Assembly (NCBI GenBank): GCA_963768175.1
Contig: CAVYGQ010000001.1
Location: 638,305 to 702,304 of the forward strand
Length of the DNA stretch: 64,000 nucleotides
Direction of reading: 5' to 3'
From: Candidatus Doudnabacteria bacterium
GTDB taxonomy: Bacteria; Patescibacteriota; Doudnabacteria; UBA920
Each line of letters opens with the position of its first letter. Position 1 is the stretch's first letter. The position numbers and the translations under genes are program-made. Shown here piece after piece: positions 5,572-48,050 of this stretch. The notes beneath the pieces are model-generated. The model did not search any database. It was not told the origin of the DNA and saw only the letters and a list, made by a program, of their open reading frames with translations.

Positions 5572-5583
5572 TCCGAGGTTTTT
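5559..5583 (+). terminator. Rho-independent terminator of topA
   Basis: cctcggaataatccgagg followed by ttttt. The TAA stop sits in the loop. Confidence 0.6.
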
Positions 5584-5589
5584 AAATTC

Positions 5590-5865
5590 CTATTTTGTAC
5601 CTTGTGCCCGAATTTGTTCCGATCTTTCACGAATTTTACCAGCCTGCTTATTATGTTCCTCAACTTTTGGATCATTGTCTGGATTTGGTGCCTCAGACCA
5701 TCCAAATCCATCTGGGTTAAAATTATATAATACTTCTTCGTCGGTCATCTCTGACAGCGGTTTATTCCTTGCACCACTTAATCTAACGGCTCTCTGATCC
5801 AATTCACTTTGTCTCTGATCTTCTGCCGCCATGTCTATTATTGGTCCGTTACCAAAATCACTCAT
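5590..5865 (-). CDS. Hypothetical small acidic protein
   Basis: 91-aa ORF in an AT-rich segment. No recognisable motif. Confidence 0.3.
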   Translation of the reverse strand: MSDFGNGPIIDMAAEDQRQSELDQRAVRLSGARNKPLSEMTDEEVLYNFNPDGFGWSEAPNPDNDPKVEEHNKQAGKIRERSEQIRAQGTK

Positions 5866-6088: not shown

Positions 6089-7354
6089 TTAATCATTCCT
6101 GCCGTAAATTTCCATCTCAAAAATTACGCACTTTAGAGCTTTATAAAATCCTATCAACGAAGCGTAATACCGCAAGTGCGCCAGCTTGTCTATAAAATAA
6201 GCCAGCCAGCCGGTTAAGTATATCCCGTTATAACTCATTATCGCCCACTTGCCGCCCACGTTAACAATAAAACCGTGCTTAATATTTTTATACGGCAACG
6301 GCGGTTTTTGGTTTTTTATAATATACGGCAAAGCGTAAGCTAAATATTTGGCTTGATCTTGCGCGTCTTGGGCCGAAGCGGGAACCGGCCTGCCTTTGCC
6401 GTCTAACACGGCGGCCATGTCTCCCAAGGCAAAAACGGCACCAGTGCCGTCCCGAACAAAGTGAGGGATCTTTCCATTGCTCACGACCTGGAAAAATTCG
6501 TTTACCGGCAAACGGCCATTTTTATCCAGCCCGGCAACTTCCATATGGCAATCGCAAGCCTTAATGCCCGTGCTCCAAATCAGGACATCGTAAGCGATTC
6601 TGTCTCCGGACATTAGCCCGACAAAATGTTCGTCAACCTCCGAAATTCTGGACGACAAACGGACCCGGACGCCAAGTTCCTGCAAACGGCCGAGGGCATC
6701 CCGGCTTAAACGGCTGCTTAAACCCGGCATCAAAATATTTGCCGCCTCAATAATTTCTATTTCAATTTTTTCCCGCGGGTACTGGTTCTTCCAGGCCAAA
6801 AAATCCGCCAAACCCTTTAGCTCCCCCACCAGCTCCACGGCCGTGTATCCCCCGCCGGCCATTACCAGGCGGACAGTTTTTTTGCTGACGTCAAACTTAT
6901 GCGCCTGGATGGCAAATTCTATTTGGTTGCGGATCCTTAAGGCATCGGGCAAATCTTTTAGGGCCAGCGCGTATTTTTGCGCGCCTTCAATGTTAAAAAA
7001 ATTACTCTCCGAGCCCAAAGCTAAAATTAAATAATCGTAATTGATTTGTTTATGGTCAAGCTCCAACTGTTTTTTTGCCGGATCGATATGCTTTAAACAG
7101 CTTTTAAAAAATCTGACATTCTTGCCTCTTAAAATTTCCGCAAAAGGCAAGCTTATGCTTTTTTTCATCTGGCTGATTGTGGCAAGCTCTTCTTCCGCCG
7201 AAGCAACCTCAAATAAATTTGGCGTGAATAAATGGTAATCGCGCTTGTCTATTAAGGTTATAGCGATGTTTTTGTTGCCCTTGAATTTTTTTTCCAAACC
7301 CAAAGCCGCCCCCAGCCCGCCAAACCCGCCTCCCACGATAACAATATTTGTCAT
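6089..7354 (-). CDS. FAD-dependent pyridine-nucleotide-disulfide oxidoreductase (type II NADH dehydrogenase-like)
   Basis: N-terminal Rossmann motif MTNIVIVGGGFGGLGAALGL and a second dinucleotide-binding motif (RLVMAGGGYTAVELVGEL). 421 aa. Confidence 0.7.
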   Translation of the reverse strand: MTNIVIVGGGFGGLGAALGLEKKFKGNKNIAITLIDKRDYHLFTPNLFEVASAEEELATISQMKKSISLPFAEILRGKNVRFFKSCLKHIDPAKKQLELDHKQINYDYLILALGSESNFFNIEGAQKYALALKDLPDALRIRNQIEFAIQAHKFDVSKKTVRLVMAGGGYTAVELVGELKGLADFLAWKNQYPREKIEIEIIEAANILMPGLSSRLSRDALGRLQELGVRVRLSSRISEVDEHFVGLMSGDRIAYDVLIWSTGIKACDCHMEVAGLDKNGRLPVNEFFQVVSNGKIPHFVRDGTGAVFALGDMAAVLDGKGRPVPASAQDAQDQAKYLAYALPYIIKNQKPPLPYKNIKHGFIVNVGGKWAIMSYNGIYLTGWLAYFIDKLAHLRYYASLIGFYKALKCVIFEMEIYGRND

Positions 7355-7431
7355 TTTTGTTTCAATTGTCTAACTTGGACACTTAAATAATAACACCGAT
7401 AAATAAAATCACAAAATTAAACGGCCGTAAT

Positions 7432-7968
7432 TTAATGTGATTTTTGCAAGTTGAATTTTCTTAACAATTCTGCGTCACTATCCACCTCTTCGACTTTCAA
7501 AATTCTAACATAATCTCTCAAGCCACTTTGGTTAAGATAAATAATCGCCTCTTTGTTTAACGGATACGGGCTAATGTAAACGCTGGCTTGGAGCTTGCAA
7601 AATTGATTTTGTTTTAGGAGCTTTCTTAAAATATTGCGTTTTTCTTTACTGTTTTCCGGAATATCAAATATAAACAAACGCCACCTGCCATCCCACTGCA
7701 AGGGCTTTTTTAATATCGATTTGGACATCAGAACTTCCAACTGTCCTTTGCTTGTCAGTTTAATAAATTTCCTATTATTTTTTTCTGTGACAGCTAATAA
7801 TTTTCTTTCAGACAACCGCCCAATCGCCTGACCAAACTCCCTTGCTGATAACTCTCTTTGTTTTAAAGCCAGTTTATAAGAAATGGCATAGGGATTATTT
7901 AGTAAACCGCGCAGATCGAATAAATTTTCTAAAATTAAATCGCTAAGAGAATAAGTTTTGTTGGGCAT
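7432..7968 (-). CDS. PaaX-like winged-helix transcriptional regulator with a Cas2/VapD-like C-terminal domain
   Basis: 178 aa. N-terminal wHTH-like region followed by WDGRWRLFIFDIPE...KRNILRKLL...LQASVYISPY. Confidence 0.45.
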   Translation of the reverse strand: MPNKTYSLSDLILENLFDLRGLLNNPYAISYKLALKQRELSAREFGQAIGRLSERKLLAVTEKNNRKFIKLTSKGQLEVLMSKSILKKPLQWDGRWRLFIFDIPENSKEKRNILRKLLKQNQFCKLQASVYISPYPLNKEAIIYLNQSGLRDYVRILKVEEVDSDAELLRKFNLQKSH

Positions 7969-7979
7969 AAATAAACATT

Positions 7980-8013
7980 ATCACATTATTTGACGGCCGT
8001 CAAATAATGTGAT
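7980..8013. promoter_or_regulatory. Perfect 34-bp palindrome (candidate operator) just upstream of the PaaX-like gene
   Basis: ATCACATTATTTGACGGCCGTCAAATAATGTGAT. A related half-site, cggccgtaatttaatgtgat, lies at 7421-7440 immediately downstream of the gene. Confidence 0.5.
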
Positions 8014-8024
8014 TTTGATAAAAC

Positions 8025-9280
8025 CTATTCGTATCTCATCGCTTCTACCGGATCCAGCATGGAAGCCGAGCGGGCTGGAAGCACGCCAAAGGAAATGCCG
8101 ATGGCCGCCGATACTCCCACAGCGAGTAAAATGGCATACATCGGCACGGAAAATGTCCAAGCGAGCCCGGAGGAAACGGCGATTAAAGAAATTACCCAAC
8201 CCAAAAGCGCGCCAAACACAATGCCGATAACTCCTCCAATGACGGTAACCAAAATTGATTCAATTAAAAACTCGTTTAAGATGTCGGAGTTTTTGCGCCT
8301 AAAGCTTTTTTCAGCCCGATTTCCGCGGTGCGTTCGGTCACCACCACATACATAATATTCATAATGCCCACGCCGCCGACGATTAAAGAAATAGCGGCAA
8401 TGGCAATCAGTAAAATGGTAATACCGTTAAAAATTACATTAAAGGTAGCCAGTGCCTGGGCCTGAGACTCTACTATGAAGTCGTCTTTGACCGGATCGGT
8501 AATGTTATGGTTATACTCCATCAAATTTTTTATCTGGCTGACGGTTACATCGGACAAATTGATATTTTGCACCTGGACAACGCCGATGACCAAGTAGTCT
8601 ATACCGAGAAGTTTTTTTTGCGCGGTGCCCAAGGGAATGTATAAACTGTCATCGGCCGTGCCACCGCCGGCAAAACCCAAAGAATTGTAAACTCCTATGA
8701 CCTGAAAATTTAAAGTGCCCACGTGGATGAATTGGCCCACCGGATCGGTTTGGTTAAACAAATCCTGGGCCAAGCTTGTGCCTAAAATCGCCACCTGGGC
8801 CGCGCCGTCGTCTTCGGCCTTGGTGTAAAAACGGCCTTCCTTTAAAGTGTGCTCGTCAATCTGGAATTTGCTGGCAGAAGCGCCGTAGTACAGTGCATTT
8901 TTGTCTACATTGCCGTAGCTTACAACCGCCTGGCCAATGACCTCGCCGTATACGCCTACGACATTATTTAGTTTTGCGATATCATCCAAATCCCGTTGCT
9001 TAAAACTGGTAATCTTTATGCCGGAAAAAGCCGCGGTATTCGGGCCAGCAACAGAACTGGCCGCGCGGTTTTTGGTGGTCGGCGGCACGCGCGTCTCGAT
9101 AAATAAAGTGTTGCTGCCTAAAGCATTGACTTGCGCATTTATCAAACTTCTAAAACCCGCGCCGGCGGACAGCACTAAAATAACCGTGGAAATGCCGATC
9201 ATAATTCCTAAAGTCGTCAACACAGTCCGTACCAAGTTGGCGGACAGGGCTTTAATGGATTGTCGTAATGCTATCATCAT
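8025..9280 (-). pseudogene. MacB/FtsX-family ABC transporter permease split by a single-base frameshift
   Basis: ORFs 8276..9304 (N-terminal part) and 8025..8252 (C-terminal part ...LDPVEAMRYE) together match the intact paralog 9357..10628. The frame shifts at a T5/A5 homopolymer near 8287-8291, and adding one base restores ...GAKNSDILNEFLIESILVTVIGGVIGI. The likely true start is MIALRQ near 9280, because the upstream MFVCLNVYM is encoded by an intergenic repeat. Confidence 0.7.
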
Positions 9281-9293
9281 ATAAACATTTAAA

Positions 9294-9355
9294 CATACAA
9301 ACATTTAAACATCATAGACTTTACTTATATGTTTAAATGCTTAAATGCTTGTATG
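9294..9355. repeat. AT-rich palindromic repeat at a gene junction inside an operon (catttaaacat / atgtttaaatg family)
   Basis: catttaaacatacaaacatttaaacat...atgtttaaatgcttaaatgcttgtatg lies exactly between the two FtsX genes. Confidence 0.6.
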
Positions 9356-9356
9356 A

Positions 9357-10628
9357 TTATTCGTATCTCAGCGCTTCTATCGGATCTAAATTACTTGCCT
9401 TAAAAGCCGGGTATAGCCCAAATACCACGCCGGTTAATATGGAAACGCCGACAGCCAGAACTACCGAGGTTATGGAAACCACAAACGCCCAATCGTAGCC
9501 TAAAGAGTGCATTAACAATGAAATAAGATAGGAAACAACCACGCCGATAATAATCCCCACCACTCCGCCAAGGCTGGTTAAGGTTCCGGCTTCCAGTAAA
9601 AATTGGTTGCGGATGGCCCCGTTTGTCGCCCCCACGGCTTTGCGCAAACCAATTTCCCTGGTGCGCTCGCCGACCGTGGCCATCATAATATTTAAAATGC
9701 CAATCCCGCCGACAATTAAGGCGACTGCGGCCATGGCGGTTAAAAACAGCGTTAAGGCGTTGGTAATAGTGCTCAGAATGCTCACGGCGTCGGCAATGTT
9801 GCGCACGGTGAAATCAATATCCGCATCGGATTTTATATGGTGCGCTTCGGTTAAAACCGCAGTGACATCATTTACGGTCTGATTAACATTATCGGCAGAG
9901 TCAACTTTTATATTTATGGCCTGCAAATAATTTATCCCTAAAATTTGCTGCTGGCCAATGACCAACGGTAAAAATATTGCATCATCCTGGTCCTGGAAAA
10001 ATGAGCTGCCGCGCGGGGTGATTACGCCGATAACGCGCAAGGGTATGCCGCCGGGCTGGGTTTGGGAAGAGCTGCGGACTTTAACTACCTGGCCGATTGG
10101 GTCAACGCCGCTGCCCCCAAATAGCTCATTGGCCACGGTTGAGCCCAAAACCACAACGTTGGCGTTGCCCTGGTCCTGCTGCTGGCTAAAAAACTGGCCT
10201 TCCTGCATGGTAAAACTTATGACACTGGGATAGTTATAGTCGGTGCCCGTAAAGTTGGTATCCACGCTCTGGCTTTCCCAGGTTACGGTAACGCTGCCGC
10301 GCACCATGGTGTTGACGGCAGCGGCATGCGGCACCCTGGTGGAATCGCGCAAGGCTGCGGCGTCGTTGGCGGTCAGGGTTGTAACCACGATGCCAAACAG
10401 CTGGGCGGGCGGGCCTTTGTCGTTGCTCTTGCCCGGCTGCACGCTAAGTAAGTTAGATCCAAGTTTGGTAATCTGCCCTAAAACCAAAGACTGGGCGCCG
10501 GCACCCAGCGCTATTATGATTATGACTCCGGCCACACCGATAACAATTCCCAAGATAGTCAAAAACGACCGGCCTTTGCGGGCCTGCAGCGTGCGGAAGA
10601 TGAGTTTGAAGGTGGAAAGGAAATTCAT
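9357..10628 (-). CDS. MacB/FtsX-family ABC transporter permease
   Basis: 423 aa. N-terminal TM helix, large extracytoplasmic domain, C-terminal FtsX domain with three TM helices, ending ...LDPIEALRYE. Confidence 0.8.
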   Translation of the reverse strand: MNFLSTFKLIFRTLQARKGRSFLTILGIVIGVAGVIIIIALGAGAQSLVLGQITKLGSNLLSVQPGKSNDKGPPAQLFGIVVTTLTANDAAALRDSTRVPHAAAVNTMVRGSVTVTWESQSVDTNFTGTDYNYPSVISFTMQEGQFFSQQQDQGNANVVVLGSTVANELFGGSGVDPIGQVVKVRSSSQTQPGGIPLRVIGVITPRGSSFFQDQDDAIFLPLVIGQQQILGINYLQAINIKVDSADNVNQTVNDVTAVLTEAHHIKSDADIDFTVRNIADAVSILSTITNALTLFLTAMAAVALIVGGIGILNIMMATVGERTREIGLRKAVGATNGAIRNQFLLEAGTLTSLGGVVGIIIGVVVSYLISLLMHSLGYDWAFVVSITSVVLAVGVSILTGVVFGLYPAFKASNLDPIEALRYE

Positions 10629-10630
10629 AA

Positions 10631-10718
10631 ATCATTTTAACATTTTATCATATTATCATTTTAACAAAACAGCGGTATTACATGTTAAAATGATAAAATG
10701 TTAGTATGATAAAATGAC
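10631..10718. repeat. AT-rich palindromic repeat at a gene junction (cattttaacat variant with compensatory arms)
   Basis: atcattttaacattttatcatattatcattttaac...gttaaaatgataaaatgttagtatgataaaatg lies between the FtsX permease and the ABC ATPase. Confidence 0.6.
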
Positions 10719-11434
10719 TACTTTACCAGTTCCTTATCCGGTGTGGCAATGGTGCGCTTAACAACGGATTCATCGTCAATAATATTCCCGTCTTTAATGC
10801 GGATAATGCGCCTGGCGTGGTTGGCGGTATCCATTTCGTGCGTAACCAAAATAATGGTGTGCCCGTCGTTATTTAGCCTTTGCAGAATTTCCATGACAAT
10901 GTTTCCGGACCTGGAATCCAGGTTCCCGGTCGGTTCATCGGCAAAAATAACAGCCGGCTCGCAAACCAAGGCGCGGGCAATGGCCACGCGCTGTTTTTCC
11001 CCGCCGGAAATTTGGTTGGTAAAGTAGTCAAGGCGATGGGAAAGCCCCACGGACTCCAAGGCCTTTTTTGCCAATTCTTCCTGGTCTTTCTTCTTGCTGT
11101 AAATTAAAGGCAGTTTTACGTTATCCAAAACGCTGGTGCGCGCCAAGAGGTTAAACGACTGGAACACAAAACCAACGCGCTCATTCCTTAACTCCGCCAG
11201 ATAATCGTCGGAAAAGTCTTTGGTGTTACGGCCTTCAAATTCGTACAGACCGCTGGTCGGACGGTCCAAAAAACTTAAAATATGCATCAAGGTGGATTTG
11301 CCGGAGCCCGAGGGGCCCATAATCGCCACAAATTCGCCGGAGTCTATGGTAAAACTCAGACCGTGGAGAACGGGAGTGACAACACCTTCGTTGGTGTAAT
11401 CTTTTTTTAAGTTTTGGACTTTGATTAGGTTCAT
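10718..11434 (-). CDS. ABC transporter ATP-binding protein (MacB/LolD-type)
   Basis: Walker [10 protein letters not shown], signature [15 protein letters not shown], Walker [13 protein letters not shown]. The true start is probably [13 protein letters not shown] at 11434, because the 8 codons before it belong to the intergenic repeat. Confidence 0.9.
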
Positions 11435-11510
11435 GTAAACATTTAAGCATGTAAACATTTAAGCATATGGCAGCATGTTTAGATGCTTATATGCTTTAAT
11501 GTTTAAATGA
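11435..11510. repeat. AT-rich palindromic repeat at a gene junction
   Basis: catgtaaacatttaagcatgtaaacatttaagcat...atgtttagatgcttatatgctttaatgtttaaatg lies between the ABC ATPase and the HlyD-family gene. Confidence 0.6.
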
Positions 11511-15964: not shown

Positions 15965-16095
15965 TTGATAAAATCGGCAAAATGTTGTAAAATATCGTAG
16001 ATACTATCAAAACTATTAACGATTTACTATTAACAATTAACTAATCCGTGTTTGGGTTAATTGTCAATTGTTAATAGTTAATTGTAATTCTACCC

Positions 16096-16200
16096 GGGTC
16101 TGTAGCTCAGTTGGCCCCATCATTCGATGGGGCAGGTATCGCAGCGGCCTTTTAAGTTTACCCTATCGAATGATAGGGCCGTTTGATAAGGGTAATCCTT
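16096..16200 (+). other. Degenerate tRNA-Lys-like sequence with two hairpin insertions
   Basis: It starts gggtctgtagctcagttgg like the next copy and contains gcagcggccttttaag and gccgtttg. It is interrupted by ccccatcattcgatgggg and ccctatcgaatgataggg, which are mutually complementary. Confidence 0.3.
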
Positions 16201-16208
16201 AAGCCGGT

Positions 16209-16469
16209 ATGTTCTATATTTATATACTCCTACAAAATAACAACCTGCCATATACTGGTTTTACTGATAATTTAAAACGCAGATATAAACAACACACGGA
16301 CGGACTAGTAACATCAACAAAGCATAAAAGGCCATTAAAACTAATTCATTACGAAGCATATTTATTAAAAACAGATGCCGTGAGAAGAGAAAAATTTTTA
16401 AAAACCACCGAAGGAAAAAGGTTGTTAAAACAGCAAATTAGAGATATATTAATTAAGCTCAAAGTGTAA
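16209..16469 (+). CDS. GIY-YIG nuclease domain protein (homing-endonuclease-like)
   Basis: IYILLQNNNLPYTGFTDNLKRRYKQH is the GIY-YIG motif. 86 aa. Lies between tRNA-like sequences. Confidence 0.65.
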   Translation: MFYIYILLQNNNLPYTGFTDNLKRRYKQHTDGLVTSTKHKRPLKLIHYEAYLLKTDAVRREKFLKTTEGKRLLKQQIRDILIKLKV

Positions 16470-16481
16470 TTTAATCTTCGT

Positions 16482-16555
16482 GGGTCTGTAGCTCAGTTGG
16501 TAGAGCAGCGGCCTTTTAAGCCGTTTGTCGCGGGTTCGATCCCTACTCGCTACAT
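16482..16555 (+). pseudogene. Degenerate tRNA-Lys(UUU)-like copy: 5' two-thirds intact, T-stem and acceptor 3' strand do not pair
   Basis: GGGTCTG-TA-GCTC-AGTTGGTA-GAGC-A-GCGGC-CTTTTAA-GCCGT-TTGTC-GCGGG-TTCGATC, then CCTAC/TCGCTAC, which do not complement. Confidence 0.4.
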
Positions 16556-16584
16556 CTCGCCTTAAAAAAACTTAATAAATTTGA

Positions 16585-16660
16585 GGGACGGTAGCTCAGC
16601 TGGTAGAGCAGCGGCCTTTTAAGCCGTTTGTCCCGGGTTCGATCCCCGGCCGTCCCACCA
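16585..16660 (+). tRNA. tRNA-Lys (anticodon UUU), 76 nt with encoded CCA
   Basis: GGGACGG-TA-GCTC-AGCTGGTA-GAGC-A-GCGGC-CTTTTAA-GCCGT-TTGTC-CCGGG-TTCGATC-CCCGG-CCGTCCC-A-CCA. All stems pair. Confidence 0.85.
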
Positions 16661-18200: not shown

Positions 18201-18995
18201 ATGACAAACAACAACATTGAGTTTATCAAAGCTGAACGCAGGCGGGCGAAAGCCAGAATCGCCCTGTGCGGACCAAGTGGTTCCGGCAAGACGCATTCAG
18301 CTTTAAGGGTAGCGGAGGGTCTGGCAAAGACAGGCAGGATAGCGGTAATTGATACGGAGAATAGCTCGGCTGAGATGGAAGCCGGCAAGCCGGGAATCCC
18401 TCCGTTCAACGTAGTCGTGATGCACGCGCCTTTTGATCCGCTGAAATACATCGCCGCGATCAAAGCGGCCGATGCGGCGGGCTACGAGGTGCTGATTATC
18501 GACTCCCTGTCCCACGCCTGGGCCGGTAGCGGCGGGCTGCTGGAAAAAAAAGACATCCTGGAAAAAATAAAAAAGAATTCTTTTACCGCATGGCGCGAAA
18601 TTACACCTCTCCACAATAGGCTGATAGAAACTATATTGCAAAGCAACATGCACATTATAGCCACTATCAGAACCAAAACCGGCATGGCGATGGACACGGA
18701 CGGCAACGGCAAAGTTACGGTTAAAAAAGTCGGTATGGATCTTGTGCAGCGCGACGGTATCGACTACGAATTCACCGTAGCCTTAGACCTTGACCAGGCC
18801 ACCCACATGGCCATGCCGAGTAAGGATCGCACCTCCATCTTCGACACGCCGGACGGAAAAAATGTAGTAATGCTTTCCAAAGAAACCGGCCTGGAGATTA
18901 GGGAATGGCTGGAAGGCGTGGAAGAAGAAAAACTTCCGGTTACGACGCACAGCCGCGCCATGTCCCCTGCCGCCAGACAGCCAGTGCTCGCCTAA
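18201..18995 (+). CDS. Phage-type RecA-fold ATPase (Sak4 / AAA_24-like)
   Basis: Walker A ALCGPSGSGKTH followed by IAVIDTENS and LIIDSLSHAW, as in RecA-like cores. Confidence 0.65.
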   Translation: MTNNNIEFIKAERRRAKARIALCGPSGSGKTHSALRVAEGLAKTGRIAVIDTENSSAEMEAGKPGIPPFNVVVMHAPFDPLKYIAAIKAADAAGYEVLIIDSLSHAWAGSGGLLEKKDILEKIKKNSFTAWREITPLHNRLIETILQSNMHIIATIRTKTGMAMDTDGNGKVTVKKVGMDLVQRDGIDYEFTVALDLDQATHMAMPSKDRTSIFDTPDGKNVVMLSKETGLEIREWLEGVEEEKLPVTTHSRAMSPAARQPVLA

Positions 18996-19072: not shown

Positions 19073-19615
19073 ATGAAATTTTTTATAAACATAAACCAAG
19101 AAAAACTCATTGAACTGGCGCCGGAAGCGAGGCTCACTGACGGAGCAGTCATGGACTACGTTTATTGGCTATGTTCCAGCCCCAGTCAGGAAGTGGAAAA
19201 TTGCCGGATTATATTTAACGGCGAAAAGTATACCTGGGTAAATTACGACTGGCTGATTCAGGATATGCCTTTGTTAAAAGGGAAAAGCAAATCAACCCTG
19301 ACTCCGGTGTTCAAGCGGCTCGAAAAATGGGGCTTTATTAAAACCCATCAGATAGCCAGTGGAAGAAAGCATGTGCATCTTGTGGATAAGGCCGACCTAC
19401 TGTTCAGAAATCAGAACAGTCCCATTCGGAAAACAAAACAGGGCCGTTTCGCAAACGAAACTAATCATATTACTACTGACCAGACTACTAAATCCCTAGG
19501 GCAAATCCCAAAAAATTATGAAGGCATAAATAAACTAAATGCCATCAAACAAAAGTTTTTAGCAAAAAATTCAATGTCAATTAACCAGACTAATACAACG
19601 AAAGGAATAATATGA
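19073..19615 (+). CDS. Hypothetical protein (possible DNA-binding protein)
   Basis: 180-aa ORF whose stop overlaps the start of the HU gene. Confidence 0.4.
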   Translation: MKFFININQEKLIELAPEARLTDGAVMDYVYWLCSSPSQEVENCRIIFNGEKYTWVNYDWLIQDMPLLKGKSKSTLTPVFKRLEKWGFIKTHQIASGRKHVHLVDKADLLFRNQNSPIRKTKQGRFANETNHITTDQTTKSLGQIPKNYEGINKLNAIKQKFLAKNSMSINQTNTTKGII

Positions 19616-19911
19616 AGCGCTCAAATCAGATTAACAAGGCGGAATTCGTCGAGGAACTTGCGGCTGTGATTCGGCTTACCGCCAGCGAAACCGAACACAT
19701 TGTCAACACTTTTATAAAAATGATTTATACCCACCTGCACCAGGGTGAAATGGTCAACCTGTCCGGCTTTGGCAAGTTCAGCGTTTCCCATCGCGCATCC
19801 CGAATAGGCATCAACCCCCGTTCCCCCGAACAGAAAATAACCATCCCGGAACTTAATACGCCGAAGTTTAAGGCTGGCGAAGCCTTTAAAGAAGCGGTAA
19901 AATTAAGATAG
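19612..19911 (+). CDS. HU/IHF-family DNA-binding protein
   Basis: GFGKFSVSHRASRIGINPRSPEQKITIPELNTPKFKAGEAFKEAV is an HU arm motif. Confidence 0.75.
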   Translation: MKRSNQINKAEFVEELAAVIRLTASETEHIVNTFIKMIYTHLHQGEMVNLSGFGKFSVSHRASRIGINPRSPEQKITIPELNTPKFKAGEAFKEAVKLR

Positions 19912-20780: not shown

Positions 20781-21200
20781 AGGAGACCAGATGAGTAGCG
20801 TTCCCCACTTACCGGATGTATTCGAAATCAGAACGCAACAAGGTTGCATGGGGCAGAAAGACTCGCTCGATACGCCAGCGGAATCGGACGAGTCGTACGA
20901 AGCCTCCGAAGCCTTGCTCAACGCCGTGCGTGCGCAAGCCAGCATCGGCCAACCGTCAACAGTCAAGAACTAAAAAGGAGCAGACGGTGCAGATTAGCCC
21001 CGAAGTCCTAAAAGACCGTTTCAAGGTTCCGCCCTCAGTGCCGGACGACCACGTGGTTGTTCAAGACCGATCGCAGTCTGGCTGGAGGCTAATGGCTCCG
21101 ACACGCAATCCGGGCGCACAGCCGGTTGCCAAGCTCCCTCTCCACAGTGGCAGGTCGCCGATGTACGGCCACCATCTCCACTAATCTACAACACGCATCA

Positions 21201-21255
21201 CGCGCCACAACGCAAACAGCGCAGGACCTGGAGGTACCCTGCGCTGTTTAATTTG
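21201..21255. repeat. Left copy of a roughly 50-bp repeat that forms a stem-loop with a GGAGG loop; it brackets the DGR
   Basis: cgcgccacaacgcaaacagcgcagg-acctggaggtacc-ctgcgctgttt. Paired with the copy at 24650-24712, with compensatory stem changes. Confidence 0.55.
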
Positions 21256-21843
21256 ATGTAAAACTTTCCTTAATAGCGGTTTTTTGGTAAAATAAAGGTA
21301 CAATCTGCGCCTAAACCTTGAGAATATCCGGGCATGGCAAAGCTACTCCGGTAGCAAACCAATACAGGTAAAGAAACCCTCGTCAGGGTTCCTGTATTGG
21401 TCGTGCGGGGAAACTCGCGCGTTCGGCCCGAAAGGGTCGAGCTCCTGGCGGGGGCTTTTTTGTATCCAAAATTAATTATTAGAAGCTATGCCCAAATATA
21501 AAATCGACATCTGGTTTGATCAAAAACCCAAAAAAATACACTTAGGGTCTGTTGCTGTTGAGGCGAAAAATGAAGAAGAGGCCTATAAAATTGCATGCCT
21601 AAAAACTGAGCACTGGATGGTAGGGAAAGTAGAAAAAGATCAATAAAAATGGGCGAAAACTCGTTCCTTGACAAACCAATAAAACTTTGATATAATGTAA
21701 GGTCTCAAAAATAACGAGACTTGCGCTTTACAATCCTTCACTAATCAAAGGATAATAAAGTGCTTGTCTTGTTTTGAAAAAGATGAGACCGTGTCCTTGC
21801 GGCCCAAGGATGTCTTACAGAACCTACACAATTCGAAAGGAGG

Positions 21844-22710
21844 ATGCTGACGATGACTACCTCATCGCTCCCATCCGATCTCAATGTTCCGGCATCCCCG
21901 GAGCAAATTCGCGACGTCCGTAACACAACCGAGGTTGCGCTGGAAAAAGGGAAGTTTTTCAAACCCGAACTCCACGCAATCCATTCGCACGGCGATCTGT
22001 ACATCCCGGCCTATCAGGAATTCGCCCACGCTTTCGCTCTGCGAATGATGACTCCGACGTTCGACCTCGCTGGTGCGCTCACTCTGCTCGGCCAGACCAA
22101 TCTGGTGACGCACGAGCAGAATTCGGCCACCTTCAGCCAGCCGTCCCCCAAAGGACAGATTGTGGCTTGCCCGAACATGGCGCAGATTCAGGAGTGCGCT
22201 GGCCAGAACAAGGCCGGAAAGCACAAGTGGATCCTCGCCTATGGGTCGACCCAGTCGTTCCGCAGCCAGCATTCCACGCTCGGCACCGACACCAATCACA
22301 AGCCGAACTACTACCCCGGCGTCGACTGGTTCCTGAAGCCCAACTATAAGGAAGTGGGCGACAGCAAGCCGGAAGCCGGGTACTACCTGCTCGACATGAC
22401 CCCGCGGTGGAATCTCACCAACTGGCAACAGCAGGAGGACAACATCGCCGCATTGGGTGAAGACTACGAGCGCGCCGACGAGCGCGTGTTTGCCCAAGCG
22501 GTGCTGGCGCACCAGAAGACTACCGGCCAGCGGCTGTTTAACGACAAGTGGCACTGGGGTCGCATTCTCGACTCCCGCGGGTTTCGCGTCTGCGTCGAGC
22601 TCCACTCGGTTGGGCTCCTCGTCTTCGACGTTCCTCCGTCCTACGGCGACCGCGACCTCTTGTACGTCTGCGTTGCCCGGAAGTCCCGCGATCGTGCCTT
22701 GATAGCTTGA
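21844..22710 (+). CDS. DGR target protein (C-type-lectin/FGE-like C-terminus carrying the variable region)
   Basis: 288 aa, GC-rich. The C-terminal ...ILDSRGFRVCVELHSVGLLVFDVPPSYGDRDLLYVCVARK is encoded by the VR. TGA stop. Confidence 0.8.
   Translation: MLTMTTSSLPSDLNVPASPEQIRDVRNTTEVALEKGKFFKPELHAIHSHGDLYIPAYQEFAHAFALRMMTPTFDLAGALTLLGQTNLVTHEQNSATFSQPSPKGQIVACPNMAQIQECAGQNKAGKHKWILAYGSTQSFRSQHSTLGTDTNHKPNYYPGVDWFLKPNYKEVGDSKPEAGYYLLDMTPRWNLTNWQQQEDNIAALGEDYERADERVFAQAVLAHQKTTGQRLFNDKWHWGRILDSRGFRVCVELHSVGLLVFDVPPSYGDRDLLYVCVARKSRDRALIA
22565..22685 (+). repeat. DGR variable repeat (VR)
   Basis: 121 bp. It matches the reverse complement of 24185-24305 with 18 mismatches, and every mismatch falls on a TR adenine. 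Confidence 0.85.
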
Positions 22711-22749
22711 GGACTAGAGGCTCTTGTATTTTGAGCCTTGAACCCTTGA

Positions 22750-22781
22750 GGGGAGGCTTCACGTCCTACGTGAAGCCTCCC
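22750..22781 (+). promoter_or_regulatory. GC-rich hairpin downstream of the VR (DGR target-recognition-type stem-loop and terminator)
   Basis: ggggaggcttcacg-tccta-cgtgaagcctccc followed by a T-rich run. Confidence 0.5.
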
Positions 22782-22788
22782 GAAATTT

Positions 22789-23808
22789 TTATTTTTTCGG
22801 CATTTCACTTTGCAACCAAAACTCATTCTTTAAACTTTCTCCAAAATCATGGGCATTGCAATGAGATAGCACCCCTAAATACGATTGTAGAGATTGCTCA
22901 TTAATCCCTTTAGCTGATTTATTAAAAATTCTTTGCTTAGTTTTGTTCCTCAAAATCCTGAATTTGGGAAACTGAATATAGCCAAGAAAATCAACTCCCT
23001 GATGGTATTTTCGTAACGTTAGTTTATGAGGGTGGATATCAAGCTTGAGCCGCTCCCGTAAAAACAGCTTTATCCATTCTAACAAGGACAAAAGTTTTTC
23101 AGGCGAATCTGAAACCAGAACAAAATCATCGGTATAGCGAACATAAAAAGGGACTTTCAGTTTGTGTTTAACAAATCTGTCCAGTTCATTCAAATAAATA
23201 TTGGCAAAGACCTGGCTAGTCAGATTGCCTATGGGTACGCCATAAGGAAAACTGTCCACGACTTCACGGATTAGCCACATGGCATCGACATCTTTAATTT
23301 TTTGGCCAATAATAGAAATCAAAATATCATGATCAACCGAACGAAAAAACTGTCTAACATCACACTTAAGCACAAAGCAGGGCTTAGTATTATTTTTGCT
23401 GGCTTTACGCAATATGCTTTTAAGCGCTTCCACGCCCTTGTGCGTGCCTTTGCCCTTTTGACAGGAAAAAGAATTGGGAATAAAGGTCTCTTCAAAAATG
23501 GGATTCAAAACAGCAAAAATGGCATGATGGATAAGCCGGTCGCGCACTCTGGCTTTGTGGATGTTCCTTTGTTTGGGATCCTGGATAAAAAAGGAAGAAT
23601 AAGGCGCATGCTTGTATCTTTTTGACTTTAATTCGTCACGCAAATCAAAAATGTTCTGCTCCAATGAAAACTCAAAAGCCATTACATCGCTGCGTTTGGT
23701 CTTTCCCTTGCGAAATGCCTGCCAGGAGTTAAACAGATTTTCCGCACTGGTTATTTTGCTAAAAATATCTTTATAGATTTTCATATATGAACGAATTCGA
23801 TGTTCCAA
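22789..23808 (-). CDS. DGR-type reverse transcriptase
   Basis: RT motifs appear in order, including PIGNLTSQVFANIYLNELD and YVRYTDDFVLV (YxDD). The SQ in motif 4 is the DGR hallmark. 339 aa. An alternative start MKIYKD at 23784 would remove the overlap with the Avd-like gene. Confidence 0.85.
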   Translation of the reverse strand: MEHRIRSYMKIYKDIFSKITSAENLFNSWQAFRKGKTKRSDVMAFEFSLEQNIFDLRDELKSKRYKHAPYSSFFIQDPKQRNIHKARVRDRLIHHAIFAVLNPIFEETFIPNSFSCQKGKGTHKGVEALKSILRKASKNNTKPCFVLKCDVRQFFRSVDHDILISIIGQKIKDVDAMWLIREVVDSFPYGVPIGNLTSQVFANIYLNELDRFVKHKLKVPFYVRYTDDFVLVSDSPEKLLSLLEWIKLFLRERLKLDIHPHKLTLRKYHQGVDFLGYIQFPKFRILRNKTKQRIFNKSAKGINEQSLQSYLGVLSHCNAHDFGESLKNEFWLQSEMPKK

Positions 23809-24164
23809 TTTTTAAAAAGTCGTATGATTTATACAAAGAGTTTTATATTTGTTTAAAAACTTTCCCAAAGCAGGACAGATATTCTTTAGGCCAGAAAAGT
23901 GAAACTGTTTTAACGGAAATTTTAGAGTGCTTGCTGACAGCCACCGGCCTGCCCAAAGCGGAAAAGTTACCTTACTTGGATAAGGCCAGTGGCAAGCTCA
24001 ATATTTTACGGATTTATATGCGTCTGGCCAAAGACATTAAGGCTATGGATAACAAAAGATATATTTTCTTTCAGGACTCGGTAGACGAAATAGGCAGGAT
24101 GCTGGGCGGCTGGAAAAAATCTGTTCAGGTTTTACAACAACCAGACCTACCTCTTAAGAGGTAG
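23787..24164 (+). CDS. Avd-like accessory variability determinant (four-helix-bundle family)
   Basis: 125 aa, basic. FKKSYDLYKEFYICLKTFPKQDRYSLGQKSETVLTEILECLL. Sits next to the RT and TR but diverges from the RT. Confidence 0.65.
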   Translation: MNEFDVPIFKKSYDLYKEFYICLKTFPKQDRYSLGQKSETVLTEILECLLTATGLPKAEKLPYLDKASGKLNILRIYMRLAKDIKAMDNKRYIFFQDSVDEIGRMLGGWKKSVQVLQQPDLPLKR

Positions 24165-24184
24165 GTCTGGTAAAAAAACGATGA

Positions 24185-24305
24185 GACTTCCGGGCAACGC
24201 AGACGTACAAGTTGTCGTTGTCGCCGTAGGACGGATGATCGTTGTTGACGTTGAGCCCATCCGAGTTGAGCTTGACGCAGACGCGATACCCGTTGGAGTT
24301 GAGAA
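24185..24305 (-). repeat. DGR template repeat (TR)
   Basis: The minus-strand sequence equals the VR except at 18 of its 28 adenines, mostly in AAC codons (TR-frame LNSNGYRVCVKLNSDGLNVNNDHPSYGDNDNLYVCVARK). Confidence 0.85.
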
Positions 24306-24649
24306 ATTGCCTGTTTCCGTCCGTGATCACTGGAAAATGTAAGGCTTACTGCCTTTTGAGGGGCCTATACCCTTTCCTTTCCTGTATTTAACTTGGGAGT
24401 AGCCCCAACCTAACGCCGGGGCATCTCCGCTAGAAACAGACAAGAAGTATCACCGCAATCAATATTCGCACGCTACTGCATCCCGTAAGATGCAATACTC
24501 TGGCGCTCCAAAGATTGGAAACCCCGCGAGTTTGAACTGTAGCTCAAACTGCATGAGCAGGATTAAGCTTATTTTAAAAATTCTAGGGCAATCTGTCAAT
24601 TAGTAGCGGTTCTAAAAAATAACATTGGCCGCTGCATAACCTGAATCTG

Positions 24650-24712
24650 CAACGCGCATTTTGCGCACAATGCGAACAGCGCGGGACATGGAGGACCCCG
24701 CGCTGTTTTTAT
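24650..24712. repeat. Right copy of the DGR-bracketing stem-loop repeat
   Basis: gcgcacaatgcgaacagcgcggg-acatggaggaccc-cgcgctgttttt. Confidence 0.55.
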
Positions 24713-24749: not shown

Positions 24750-25604
24750 ATGTTTTATCATTCACTAAAAAATAAAATGCAACAGCAACTTGAAAAGTTT
24801 GGAATATACTTATTAGTGCAAAGAGGCCTGCAACCCTATACTATATTTGGCTACCAAGGAGGTGTTAGTAGGTTTTTGCGGCAAGTGACAACAATCAATC
24901 CCAATGTCAGCCAAGTCGAGGGTTATATCGCCCAAATGAGGCAGCAGGGCAGTTCCTACAGTCATGTGGTTAACACTTCGCTGGCCATAGAACGATATAT
25001 GGATTTTCTTGGGACTCCTTTTAAATTAGGCCGCCCCAAAAAACCCAAGCGTACCATTAAAGAAACTCTCAGCGAGGCTGAAATAGCCCGTTTAATCGGA
25101 ATGTGCAAAAATATTCGGGAGCGGGCTATTTTAGTGGTATTGGCCTATTCCGGCATCAGGAACAAGGAGTTATGTAATTTGACTGTTTCTGATATTAATT
25201 TTTCTAACCAAAGCATTTATATCAAAGGGGGCAAAGGCAGTAAGGATAGAATTGCTTGCATCCCTCCGGAGTGCTTAGCTATCCTAATGGAATATTTACA
25301 GGCTTACCCAAGGGCACAGACTGATCGCTTATTTACCACGCTAGTAAAACAAAAATTTTATGCCGCTGGTGATTTAAGAAAACTGGTCAAGGTAGTGGCC
25401 AAACGTATGAATTTTAGCAAGCGGGTCTATCCTCACCTGTTTCGGCATTCTTTGGCCACTAATATGCTGGATTGGGGCGCTGCCATTCACTCCATCCAAC
25501 AGCAACTTGGCCATGCTTACATGGAAACTACCATGATCTATTTGCATCCGTCTTTGAGACGATTACGTAATGAGTATTTGTTTTATGTGCCAAATTATGT
25601 TTGA
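24750..25604 (+). CDS. Tyrosine recombinase/integrase (XerC/D-like)
   Basis: C-terminal catalytic region HLFRHSLATNMLDWGAAIHSIQQQLGHAYMETTMIYLH (R...H-x-x-R...Y). Confidence 0.85.
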   Translation: MFYHSLKNKMQQQLEKFGIYLLVQRGLQPYTIFGYQGGVSRFLRQVTTINPNVSQVEGYIAQMRQQGSSYSHVVNTSLAIERYMDFLGTPFKLGRPKKPKRTIKETLSEAEIARLIGMCKNIRERAILVVLAYSGIRNKELCNLTVSDINFSNQSIYIKGGKGSKDRIACIPPECLAILMEYLQAYPRAQTDRLFTTLVKQKFYAAGDLRKLVKVVAKRMNFSKRVYPHLFRHSLATNMLDWGAAIHSIQQQLGHAYMETTMIYLHPSLRRLRNEYLFYVPNYV

Positions 25605-32357: not shown

Positions 32358-33455
32358 ATGGATCCAATTCAGACACATCATTATTTCAGACAAATCAGCC
32401 AGGAATTTCTGGTGTATTGCCAGTTTGGAAAAGAAACGCCGGTCGCTAAAACAACCCTGATAGGCTACGGGCGCGGGATGAAGTTGATGAATAAAATATT
32501 TGGCGACAAGCCGATAGAAGAACTGGATAGCAACGATGTACTACTTTTGAGAAAATCCATTTTGGAACGCGGCTGTACTTTAAGCTATCTGCATAGAATC
32601 CTGAGCATGCTTCGCTCCGTCCTCCGCTATTGCCGCGAAGAAAGGGATATGGAAATATTGCCACCGGAAAAAATCAAACTGCCTAAAATAAAATGGCGGG
32701 ACGTGGAGTTCTACAGCGTCAGCCAGGTGGAAAAAATTATTTCCGAGATTCAGACCATGACGATCCACGGCATCCGTCTGATGGCGGTAGTGGCCGGTTT
32801 CCTGGACAGCGGCATGCGCATCTCGGAGCTTCTTTCCCTGGACCGCGCCAGCATAGATTACGGGGACGGCAGCGCTTACATAATTGGCAAAGGCGGCAAA
32901 CAAAGGAAAGTCTTTTTCAGATCATGGTCAATGGACTGGATGCAAAAATATCTGGCACAGCGAACTGACAATAATCCAGCGATGTTCGTGGTTCACCACG
33001 CAGGCTACGAGTTAGTCAGATTAAGGCCGGAAGACGTCCGGAAAATGCTGCGGAGGATATCCAAAACCGTGGGCTTTGGGATAAGACCGCATGCCTTAAG
33101 AAGAACTTTTGCCACCCTCCTGCACGGCAATGGCGTGGACATAAGGTTTCTACAAGCCCTGCTTGGCCATTCTTCGGTACAGGTAACGGAGCGTTACGTA
33201 GGCGTCGACCAAGTCATGCTTAAGGCAATGGTTAACACCAGAATGAACTACGGCCTGGCTGAAGCGGTCACATCCAACCTGGCAGCTATCCGCTGGGCCA
33301 AGGGATATGATCAGTGCATAGAGTGTGGACAAACCAGGCGGCCCCACCTTGCCAGAGGCTATTGCGACAGCTGCTACATGAACGCTAGGAACCATCAGGA
33401 GCTCAATAAACACGGGGTTTTGACGCTACAGGGAGTTGCGTTACAGCCAGCCTAA
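32358..33455 (+). CDS. Tyrosine integrase with a C-terminal zinc-ribbon extension
   Basis: HALRRTFATLLHGNGVDIRFLQALLGHSSVQVTERYVGV (R, H-x-x-R, Y). C-terminal CIECG...CDSCY. Confidence 0.85.
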   Translation: MDPIQTHHYFRQISQEFLVYCQFGKETPVAKTTLIGYGRGMKLMNKIFGDKPIEELDSNDVLLLRKSILERGCTLSYLHRILSMLRSVLRYCREERDMEILPPEKIKLPKIKWRDVEFYSVSQVEKIISEIQTMTIHGIRLMAVVAGFLDSGMRISELLSLDRASIDYGDGSAYIIGKGGKQRKVFFRSWSMDWMQKYLAQRTDNNPAMFVVHHAGYELVRLRPEDVRKMLRRISKTVGFGIRPHALRRTFATLLHGNGVDIRFLQALLGHSSVQVTERYVGVDQVMLKAMVNTRMNYGLAEAVTSNLAAIRWAKGYDQCIECGQTRRPHLARGYCDSCYMNARNHQELNKHGVLTLQGVALQPA

Positions 33456-35584: not shown

Positions 35585-35620
35585 CTTTGGCGTCGGCTAT
35601 AATTCGGCTATAATATAGAC

Positions 35621-35662
35621 AAAGGGACTCTTTGCGCAGCGCAAAGAGTCCCTTTGTTGCTT
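35621..35662. terminator. Perfect 42-bp palindrome, a bidirectional terminator between convergent genes
   Basis: caaagggactctttgcgcagcgcaaagagtccctttg. Confidence 0.6.
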
Positions 35663-36974: not shown

Positions 36975-38168
36975 CTAAAAACTGCCTTTGATATTCTCCC
37001 ACAAACTTTCATCAACATTTACCGCTTCACCGCGCTCGGAAGCGAGCTGTTTTAGGAGTTCTTTTTCTTTTTTGGAAAGTCTTTGCGGCACGACAACGCG
37101 CACGGTGACCAAAAGATCGCCGCGGCGGGAGGGCTCGTTTATATGTGGCACGCCCTTGCCTTTAACTTTTAAGACTGTGCCGCTTTGGATACCGGACGGA
37201 ATTTTAAGTTCTATGTTGCCATCCAGAGTTTTTAAAATAATTTTTGCACCCAAAGCCGCTTGGGTAAAACTTACCGGCAATTCTTTAAGCAAAGTAGAGC
37301 CGTCGCGTCCAAACTCTTTGGAGGGCGAAACTTTAACCACTAAATATAAATCCCCGTGGCTACTGCCGCGGTAGCCGGCCTCGCCCTCGCCGGCAATCCG
37401 CACGCGCTGGCCGTTGTCTATACCGGCGGGGATTTTTACCATAATGGTTTTTTCCTGGCGCAACACGCCGTTGCCTCTACAAGTTGCACAGGGCACTTCG
37501 GGTATTTTGCCCATACCCTGGCAGCGGTCGCAACTGACAGAAGAAGCCACGGTGCCAAAAATGGTGCGCCGCTGCTGACGGATTTGCCCCTGGCCGTGGC
37601 ATTGGGGACAAGTAATAACTTTGCTTCCCGGAGCCGCGCCGTTGCCTCCGCAGGTTTTACAGGCATCTTGTTTTTCCAAAGTCAGAGTTTTTTCCACACC
37701 GAAAACCGCTTGCTCAAAGGTGATGTTGATGCCCATTTCCAAATCTATGCCGCGCATACGCCGGCTTTGTCTTTCGGCGGAACGGCTGCCGAACATGTCG
37801 CCAAAAATATCTCCCAAGTCTCCGCCGAAGGCGGATCCGCCTTCGGCGGAAAACCCACCAAAATCAAAACCGCCAAAATCAAACCCCCCAAAAGGATTCC
37901 CGCCATAGGCGGGTCCGCCTCCGGCGGAAAAACCTCCGCCGCCATTTCTGGCGGCGTCTTCAAAAGTCTGGCCGTACTGGTCGTACTGCTGGCGTTTTTG
38001 CGAATCCGAAAGCACCTGATAAGCCTGGTTGACTTCCTTAAATTTATCCGCGTTGCCGCTGCCTTTGTCGGGGTGGTATTCGTGCGCCTTTCTGCGGAAA
38101 GCCTTTTTTATTTCATCAGCCGAAGCGGACTTTGGGATTCCTAAAATGTCGTAGTAGTCTTTAGCCAT
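36975..38168 (-). CDS. dnaJ: Molecular chaperone DnaJ
   Basis: J-domain ([32 protein letters not shown]), G/F-rich linker, and four CxxCxGxG zinc-finger repeats. Confidence 0.9.
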
Positions 38169-38170
38169 AA

Positions 38171-38250
38171 ATCATTTAAACATACAAACATTTAAACATA
38201 TAAGCAATTCCAGCATGTTTAAATGCTTAGATGCTTCCATGTTTAAATGA
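38171..38250. repeat. AT-rich palindromic repeat at a gene junction (catttaaacat family)
   Basis: atcatttaaacatacaaacatttaaacat...atgtttaaatgcttagatgcttccatgtttaaatga. Lies between the DUF3467-like gene and dnaJ. Confidence 0.6.
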
Positions 38251-38252
38251 CC

Positions 38253-38552
38253 TTACTCTGTCCTAAACCCAATTTTGTGTTCCGGCTGGTCGGAGGATTT
38301 TATCGCGCCGTATTGTTGCTCAAAACTTTTTAAATTATCCTGCATGGCCGCAACCACGCGCTTCATATGAGAAGGCGACAGGATTACGCGCGCCGAAACA
38401 ATACCCGAAGGCGGAAATATATTCATAAAATCCAAGACAAATTCTTCCGGCCCGTGGCCAACCTGAACCATATTGGCATAAACACCTCTTAAGACGTCAT
38501 CGGGGATTTTAACTTGTATCTGTTGCCCTTGTGGGGCTTGTTCTTGAGCCAT
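38253..38552 (-). CDS. Small conserved hypothetical protein (DUF3467-like)
   Basis: 99 aa. YANMVQVGHGPEEFVLDF. Confidence 0.45.
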   Translation of the reverse strand: MAQEQAPQGQQIQVKIPDDVLRGVYANMVQVGHGPEEFVLDFMNIFPPSGIVSARVILSPSHMKRVVAAMQDNLKSFEQQYGAIKSSDQPEHKIGFRTE

Positions 38553-43051: not shown

Positions 43052-43123
43052 TTAAACATTTAAGCATCTAAGCATGTAAACATACTCGGATTGTTTAAAT
43101 GTTTGTATGTTTAAATGCTTAAA
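43047..43123. repeat. AT-rich palindromic repeat at a gene junction (catttaaacat family)
   Basis: atcatttaaacatttaagcatctaagcatgtaaacat...tttaaatgtttgtatgtttaaatgcttaaat. Lies between hrcA and grpE. Confidence 0.6.
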
Positions 43124-48001: not shown

Positions 48002-48006
48002 CTTAA

Positions 48007-48050
48007 TAAAAAGGGGCATCCTTTTGTTGCAAAAGGATGCCCCTTTTTAT
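48007..48050. repeat. Second copy of the REP-like hairpin directly downstream of the transposase stop
   Basis: aaaaaggggcatccttttgttgcaaaaggatgcccctttttat has the same core as 47475-47528. Confidence 0.7.

Follow-up and report, generated by a model that had tools for sequence, protein, structure and literature searches.

The mechanistic prototype of the diversity-generating retroelements (DGRs) is that of the Bordetella phage BPP-1, in which target gene, accessory gene, template repeat (TR), and reverse transcriptase (RT) gene are arranged as mtd-avd-TR-brt, with all genes on one strand. A structured spacer RNA of ∼140 nucleotides (nt) sits 3′ of the TR in this system, where bRT-Avd is wrapped in the surrounding RNA, which also primes the synthesis of cDNA (bioRxiv 10.1101/2023.10.23.563531). 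Among the DGRs of the candidate phyla radiation (CPR), the order TR-(avd)-RT, named architecture B3, accounts for 90% of those in the set of Wu et al. 2018 (PMC5758913); these B3 systems are represented by DGR clade 2 in Roux et al. 2021 (PMC8144416). The window analyzed here is a stretch of 64,000 nt from a Candidatus Doudnabacteria bacterium (contig CAVYGQ010000001.1), and it contains, between 21201 and 24712, a DGR lying between two related repeats. As first described, the locus is ordinary: its layout is the one published as standard among CPR DGRs, and its repeats are of local occurrence, in a single population. The comparison with related loci also brought out a long, conserved, structured leader directly 5′ of the TR.

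Components of the DGR

A preliminary description made from the letters of the window gave the strand order as target (+), RT (−), Avd (+), and TR (−), which is correct, as established from the alignment of the TR with the variable repeat (VR) and from the strands of the RT and avd open reading frames (ORFs). The VR (22565 to 22685, plus strand), located inside the 3′ end of the target ORF, and the TR (24305 to 24185, minus strand) form an ungapped alignment of 121 nt with 18 mismatches, all of which (18/18) are at TR adenines. The final 27 nt (CTTGTACGTCTGCGTTGCCCGGAAGTC), past the last mismatch at 22658, are identical in the two repeats, and similarity is gone beyond them. This shared 3′ end, which reads …GTCTGCGTTGCCCGGAAGTC, is GC-rich and resembles an initiation of mutagenic homing (IMH) site. 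The VR finishes 25 nt ahead of the target stop codon. In a relative (locus L087) the TR is identical to that of the window at 120 of 121 positions, and the VRs differ at TR-adenine positions, a comparison of two assemblies rather than of reads.

The RT (331 amino acids; 22789 to 23784, minus strand) matches Pfam RVT_1 at 78 bits and contains the motifs IGNLTSQ and YTDD, both invariant in an alignment of 20 RT homologs. All close homologs of this RT are housed in DGR cassettes, and an exact look-up of its sequence retrieved no record. The Avd accessory protein (23787 to 24164, plus strand) scores above the cut-offs of both Pfam bAvd (68.7 bits; cut-off, 40) and NCBIfam DivGenRetAVD (88.4 bits; cut-off, 80). 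Because of the adenine-specific mismatches, the RT motifs, the Avd scores, and a VR that varies against a constant TR, the interval is identified as a complete and apparently active DGR.

The starts of the two divergent genes had been described as overlapping by about 20 bp, a claim that hinges on an upstream TTG at 23808 and was not upheld. Since the homologs are all approximately 331 amino acids long and start with MKIYK, the RT start is placed at 23784, which leaves 2 bp between it and the avd start at 23787; the corresponding spacing in the gene calls of relatives is 0 to 2 bp. With starts placed back to back, the ribosome-binding site and promoter of each gene must sit inside the other, an arrangement that implies two mRNAs in obligatory antisense overlap, as judged from the gene positions.

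The target gene (21853 to 22710, plus strand) encodes 285 amino acids from an ATG 9 nt after a GGAGG, with the VR at its 3′ end, and its product is one of about 20 proteins that make up a small orphan family. A sequence search against the PDB gave no match. In its AlphaFold2 (AF2) model, with a pLDDT of 74, the C-terminal part weakly resembles C-type lectin folds; the top Foldseek matches in the PDB are C-type lectin-like (8oks, rhodocetin, and BDCA2), with a best E value of 0.085 and none at or below 0.001. A 14-bp hairpin with T-runs (22751 to 22781), a predicted bidirectional terminator, separates the convergent target and RT genes. In 1-kb windows from 21001 to 24000, the G+C content is about 55% over the target stretch and about 39% over the RT and avd stretch; the ORFs to the left of the left repeat (20 to 21 kb) are also GC-rich, at about 53%.

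Architecture B3 across Patescibacteria

Homologs of the window RT come overwhelmingly from metagenome-assembled genomes (MAGs) of Patescibacteria or Parcubacteria. Their loci (named below by numbers such as L001) were taken from genome assemblies (80 loci) and from contigs of close relatives, and Avd, TR, and VR were located in each. The B3 layout is present in 48 of the 83 RT-homolog loci examined, essentially all those from Patescibacteria. In these 48 loci avd lies on the strand opposite to the RT gene and abuts its start, and the TR is on the RT strand, 40 to 60 nt past the 3′ end of avd; in the non-Patescibacteria loci of this set, avd and the RT gene share a strand. The layout had been called noncanonical, which is true with respect to the Bordetella phage prototype but not within the clade, where it is the published B3 arrangement.

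The inversion of avd between TR and RT, as reported for the window, is therefore found in the same form in 48 loci. An inversion of the avd segment by misassembly around 23.8 to 24.2 kb, which would have undone the described layout, has virtually no probability: nothing speaks for it except the odd orientation and the spacing of 2 bp between the start codons, whereas the identical arrangement in the 48 loci, from independent NCBI, ENA, JGI, and Logan assemblies, excludes it, and the arrangement is published as architecture B3. On this comparative evidence the layout is neither new nor a misassembly but known and typical of Patescibacteria.

The window DGR resembles the B3 CPR DGRs in its RT clade, with best matches to Parcubacteria and Patescibacteria MAGs, in the inverted avd that abuts the RT gene, in the TR placed past avd on the RT strand, in the adenine-specific mismatches, and in its orphan target. 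Unlike most B3 loci, in which the target lies upstream of the TR and on the RT strand, it has a convergent target downstream of the RT gene. This is the only peculiarity of the sub-clade and is common to L001 to L004, L006, L094, and L095. It also differs from typical B3 CPR DGRs by its position in an island-like stretch adjoining an integrase gene.

A structured leader 5′ of the TR

The window has the same four components as BPP-1 and shares with it the GC-rich, IMH-like end of VR and TR, the adenine mutagenesis, and a stem-loop just 3′ of the TR, where “Avd-binding stem-loops” have been predicted across DGRs (bioRxiv 10.1101/2023.10.23.563531). In contrast to the phage system, with its genes on one strand and its large spacer RNA 3′ of the TR, only about 45 nt separate the TR of the window from an inverted avd, and a large conserved structured domain of ∼260 nt lies on the 5′ side.

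This domain occupies the 259 nt (24564 to 24306, minus strand) between the TR and a putative minus-strand promoter (TTGACA-17-TAAAAT; 24571 to 24599; 11/12 consensus positions), and searches with nhmmer showed that it is conserved at the nucleotide level even where the RTs are only 50 to 60% identical. A profile of the leader matches 38 of the 48 B3 loci as well as L024, L034, and L052, with the TR start as the end point of every match, and gave no match in the other 32 loci lacking the B3 layout. The leader was found directly upstream of each TR in L001 to L022 and in others, with its own −10 and −35 boxes. RNAalifold folds the aligned leaders into seven helices with 56 pairs, 43 of which show compensatory changes. 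In this fold, 93.6% of the alignment cells are paired, compared with 37 to 51% in controls with slid partners, and the covariation score is 0.655, compared with 0.09 to 0.20 in the controls; none of 500 shuffles reached 0.655. Helix 5 (24443 to 24432 with 24318 to 24307) pairs the center of the leader with the 12 nt just ahead of the TR and ends 1 to 2 nt before it. No description of a long 5′ leader was found in the searchable literature, and no Rfam family corresponds to it; the published analysis of RNA around the TR covered only 40 nt upstream and 100 nt downstream (bioRxiv 10.1101/2023.10.23.563531).

On the other side of the TR, 13 nt from its 3′ end, a perfect 14-bp hairpin (24140 to 24171) overlaps the avd stop codon and may end the TR RNA as a stem-loop or as a weak terminator. 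In 23 of 29 B3 loci the TR is followed, after 7 to 23 nt, by a hairpin of 9 to 14 bp and varying sequence; a U-rich tail accompanies about half of these hairpins. A primer-template pairing of GAACTTC in the leader with the 3′ end of the TR (GGAAGTC), noticed by eye, was dropped: both motifs are almost invariant, and two loci have GGAACTTC at the TR end, so that covariation cannot test the idea.

These features are consistent with the following arrangement of transcripts. The plus-strand promoter would drive the target gene that carries the VR, and the minus-strand promoter would produce a discrete noncoding RNA composed of the ∼260-nt leader, the 121-nt TR, and the 14-bp stem-loop abutting the 3′ end of avd. 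RT and Avd would bind this leader-TR RNA and copy the TR into adenine-mutagenized cDNA that replaces the VR, by extension from the Bordetella phage system. Translation of the RT would need either transcription that passes the stem-loop and runs antisense to avd or a promoter within avd. It is possible, although we hold this with less than even confidence, that the DGRs of Patescibacteria use a differently organized DGR RNA, a discrete transcript with a large structured domain 5′ of the TR that ends at a stem-loop abutting an inverted avd. If so, the inverted-avd layout would owe its existence to a shift of the RT-Avd-engaging RNA domain to the 5′ side of the TR. The leader is a concrete candidate for how the very abundant but unstudied B3 DGRs assemble and prime reverse transcription, and its sequence and structure can serve to locate TRs.

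Limits of the conserved unit

Comparison with relatives by blastn delimits a conserved DGR unit from 21667 to 24576, promoter to promoter, which ends inside the bracket formed by the repeats. The matched part of the window is 21667 to 24559 for L001 (83% identity), 21692 to 24564 for L094 (86%), 21667 to 24576 for L095 (91%), up to 24565 for L002 and L004 (82%), and 21457 to 24577 for L003 (70%). The left edge is the target-gene promoter (21668 to 21696, plus strand), TTGACA-17-TATAAT with a TG extension and 12/12 consensus positions, which is kept in L001, L003, L094, and L095, with unrelated sequence upstream of it in each. The right edge is the promoter of the leader-TR RNA, and relatives have −10-like boxes at its position. 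Both edge promoters are putatively of the sigma-70 type and face inward.

At 82 to 91% nucleotide identity, the unit occurs in four other gene neighborhoods, five including the window, and the homology stops sharply at the promoters. The neighbors are uvrA/uvrC in L001, rpsF-ssb-rpsR/ychF in L094, ychF in L002, and ruvB/MNT-HEPN in L095, while the window has a mobile-looking stretch on one side and the integrase on the other. Neither direct nor inverted terminal repeats were found at the unit ends in the relatives, and the flanking sequences are unrelated in every locus. This 2.9-kb unit therefore relocates by a route that leaves no obvious scars.

The flanking repeats

The two repeats that bracket the cassette had been placed at 21201 to 21255 and 24650 to 24712. 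The pair is real, but its extents are corrected to 21183 to 21249 (left repeat, R_L) and 24644 to 24710 (right repeat, R_R), both in plus orientation, giving two direct repeats that are ∼80% identical over ∼67 nt. Their 44-nt core has a blastn E value of 0.002 within the window, and the pair exceeds chance expectation; a degenerate pattern and short-word blastn found no third copy within the 64 kb. R_L begins at the stop codon of the ORF at 20816 to 21184 and has a small hairpin on its 5′ side and then a GC-rich one of 11 bp (arms at 21215 to 21225 and 21238 to 21248), followed by TTTAATTT. R_R is separated by 45 nt from the −35 box of the TR promoter, on its outer side, and by 67 nt from the integrase start; it consists of a 5-bp hairpin and an 11-bp hairpin (arms at 24675 to 24685 and 24697 to 24707), followed by TTTTTATTAT. 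The 11-bp arms follow the pattern AACAGCGCRGG/CCYGCGCTGTT, the loop contains GGAGG, and a T-run comes after the stem. The hairpins have folding energies of −25.8 and −26.7 kcal/mol (z scores of −4.5 and −3.5), and none of 200 shuffles folds as well. The hairpins and the GGAGG loop of the preliminary description are thus confirmed, but its compensatory stem substitutions come down to a single pair (A-U to G-C).

Outside the population of the window itself (L084 to L087), the repeat was found in none of the 95 fetched loci, and it is missing from L001 to L004, L094, and L095, which have the same DGR unit at 82 to 91% identity. A metagenome scan with a tolerant pattern retrieved it in three contigs only, each 94 to 96% identical to the window, and a scan of viral contigs for the repeat hairpin gave no match. 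L086 reproduces the left side of the window and L084 the right side, with R_R present in L084 and also in L087. In L085, the left flank is followed by R_L, and identity ends exactly after …GCGCTGTTT, with no DGR beside the repeat; beyond this point come 450 nt without relation to the window, then an integrase paralog (65% identity; opposite strand) and a GC-rich gene that is likewise unrelated. L087, at 89% identity, is syntenic with the window from 21261 to beyond 33.9 kb in the order LOOT-DGR-R_R-integrase (LOOT being a structured RNA, described below); the 47 nt that precede the LOOT promoter in this locus show no relation to R_L and match neither the window nor the other loci. Because the identity of L085 and of L087 breaks at the left repeat edge, there is a mosaic junction at 21250 to 21260; the repeat can occur without the DGR and the DGR without the left repeat. 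In the other genomes that have the DGR unit, the repeats do not travel with it. From these comparisons, the two repeats are taken not to be DGR components.

The repeats had been proposed to be either structured RNAs linked to the DGR or the ends of a mobile DGR module. Lying outside the conserved unit and missing at related DGR loci, they find no comparative support in either role. Functional RNAs tied to the DGR, whether as processing or protein-binding elements or as small RNAs (sRNAs) with an anti-Shine-Dalgarno-like GGAGG loop, are very improbable. The hairpins are indeed stable on both strands, with a conserved GGAGG loop and one compensatory pair, but a single covarying pair between two copies is no evidence of selection for structure. 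In addition, the repeats lie outside both inward-facing DGR promoters and are missing from every other DGR locus examined, including the relatives of 82 to 91% identity. No plus-strand promoter was found upstream of R_R, and at a permissive threshold neither the repeats nor the leader matched an Rfam family between 20900 and 25000, where LOOT was the only match.

The repeats are probably duplicated terminator or insulator hairpins, that is, terminator-like module borders at a junction of genome modules. Each would be a two-hairpin element, the large hairpin of which, with its T-run, resembles a Rho-independent and probably bidirectional terminator. R_L would close the upstream plus-strand operon ahead of the LOOT sRNA gene, R_R would insulate the DGR locus from the integrase gene, and the similarity of the two would reflect a local duplication or recombination event at this junction. 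In favor of this are the stable hairpins with T-runs, situated at a gene end (the ORF at 20816 to 21184) and between transcription units. With Rho-independent, bidirectional terminators, the repeats share the GC-rich 11-bp stem, the A-rich stretch before it, the T-run after it, and the placement.

Several observations weigh against terminators. The loops, at 11 to 12 nt, are larger than those of typical Rho-independent terminators, and a scan for consensus terminators, with a loop limit of 8 nt, listed neither repeat owing to these loops or to a bulged stem, so that the assignment is founded on folding energy and T-runs. About 30 nt upstream of the hairpin are also conserved between the copies, which a plain terminator does not need, and one copy has mosaic breakpoints. 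The direct orientation of the copies, the neighboring tyrosine recombinase, and the homology break at the left repeat edge in two relatives are all predictions of a recombination site. Finally, the functions assigned above to both promoters, to the leader, and to the hairpin next to the TR are putative.

The corresponding alternative, that the repeats are att- or dif-like sites of the adjacent Xer-like recombinase and that LOOT, a 52-amino-acid ORF, and the DGR form an excisable or inserted cassette, is unlikely on balance. Xer-exploiting islands carry a dif-like site on each flank, and in Xer systems with a single recombinase the site adjoins the recombinase gene. As in such islands, direct repeats with inverted arms, here of 11 bp, bracket a block of genes in the window, with one copy immediately upstream of an Xer-like gene (R_R ends 67 nt before its start). 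The L085 repeat is likewise 450 nt from the 65%-identical integrase paralog, and homology breakpoints fall at 21249 (L085) and about 21261 (L087). Further points for recombination are the 77%-identical integrase of L088/L089, which lies less than 5 kb from a DGR, beside type IV secretion genes and with adjoining sequence repeated three times, and the differing neighborhoods of the DGR unit among related genomes.

However, characterized tyrosine recombinase sites have crossover regions of 6 to 8 bp, shorter than the spacer between the arms of the window repeats, which moreover differs between the copies (11 nt in one, 12 in the other). The integrase lies outside the bracket, and the repeat is missing beside integrase homologs of 68 to 77% identity, so that, unlike in Xer-exploiting islands, the site is not kept with the recombinase. 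L087 keeps LOOT-DGR-R_R-integrase with no left repeat within the available 47 nt, and elsewhere the DGR unit has no flanking repeats of any kind. Neither a clean empty site nor a circle junction turned up in the metagenome scan, and no excised form was seen. L085 and L087 represent alternative junctions at the left repeat, and neither is a clean empty site, the integrase of L085 being a 65% paralog in opposite orientation.

Related hairpins also occur in pairs elsewhere in the window. On either side of a PaaX/Cas2-like gene (7432 to 7968, minus strand) are long hairpins (7405 to 7444 and 7980 to 8016) that are 78% identical and differ in a compensatory manner. A Y1/IS200-like transposase ORF (47336 to 48048; Pfam Y1_Tnp, 40 bits) contains a perfect hairpin of 16 to 20 bp inside its frame (47481 to 47524). 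A hairpin 93% identical to it lies just past the stop (48005 to 48048), and a third related one is found at 35615 to 35658. This transposase with its hairpins resembles repetitive extragenic palindromic (REP) elements with a REP-associated transposase. These pairs are associated with genes other than DGRs, which favors the reading of the repeats as terminators; related hairpins at module borders are thus a habit of this genome.

LOOT RNA and a small ORF at the cassette edge

Between R_L and the target promoter lies a LOOT RNA (Rfam RF03000; 21308 to 21439, plus strand), a member of an orphan sRNA motif, identified by a full-length match (1 to 121) at 50.0 bits against a gathering threshold of 46.4 and followed by a hairpin with a T-run (21439 to 21457, plus strand) that was listed by the terminator scan as its terminator. 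Rfam scans of about 46 Patescibacteria DGR loci located LOOT at the cassette edge in five, the window and four others, about 90 to 420 nt from the target gene or the TR promoter. L003 has one copy on each side of the entire DGR (517 to 634 and 3878 to 4007), L009 also has two (566 to 683 and 1240 to 1360), and L014 (1709 to 1838) and L042 (3742 to 3871) have one each. L001, L002, L004, and most of the loci scanned have none; LOOT is therefore not a core DGR component, though it recurs at the cassette border.

Between LOOT and the target promoter, a conserved ORF of 52 amino acids (MPKYKIDIWFDQKP...; 21488 to 21646, plus strand) has a homolog at the same position in L003 (3690 to 3854, minus strand; phmmer E value, 1.3e-23) and was seen only in the lineage of the window and in L003. 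It matched nothing in Pfam, PHROG, or NCBIfam.

Integrase and surrounding island

The Xer-like tyrosine recombinase (24777 to 25604, plus strand, with the start inferred from homologs) lies just outside the bracket and is not part of the DGR. It matches Pfam Phage_integrase at 105 bits; its best NCBIfam match is XerA-type, at 187 bits and below the cut-off of 220. The homology of L088 to L092 to the window is confined to this gene, and upstream of their integrases is a different 68-nt motif. In L088/L089 (4718 to 10828), the DGR less than 5 kb from the 77%-identical integrase is a different one (RT, 4718 to 5725; bAvd, 7245 to 7766; both on the minus strand), and the neighbors encode TraC/VirB4-like and PrgI-like type IV secretion proteins and an M23 peptidase. 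A segment of ∼700 nt containing the 68-nt motif is duplicated upstream of the integrase in these loci, and the motif also precedes the integrases of L090 to L092.

A second tyrosine recombinase gene, 29% identical to the first, is found 7 kb further right (32358 to 33455), and L087 is without the ArsP-type permease stretch (∼29.6 to 31.2 kb) that lies between the two in the window. The whole region from 16.6 to 33.5 kb looks like a variable island. Searches of viral contigs with the AAA_24 protein of this region (see below) and with the integrase returned nothing useful.

Next to the left end of this region, three sequences related to tRNA-Lys(UUU) stand in a row (16093 to 16660). The first (∼16093 to 16200) is a tRNA-like sequence broken up by two inserted hairpins, with a GIY-YIG ORF (16209 to 16469; Pfam, 50.9 bits) after it, the second is degenerate (16477 to 16546), and the third is an intact gene (16585 to 16660). 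Phage-like genes follow to the right, among them a Sak4-like AAA_24 gene (18201 to 18995) and an HU gene (19612 to 19911), which suggests an island. No att-type repeats were found between the tRNA-Lys region (16.1 to 16.7 kb) and the DNA past the integrase, the tRNA 3′ end occurring at tRNA genes only.

Elsewhere in the window, five intergenic sites (9265 to 9364, 10628 to 10717, 11427 to 11510, 38160 to 38253, and 43036 to 43142) contain TTAAACAT-like arrays with a period of 8 nt, each followed by an inverted array (ATGTTTAA). From their sequence pattern, these arrays may be candidate binding sites of a regulator at divergent promoters.

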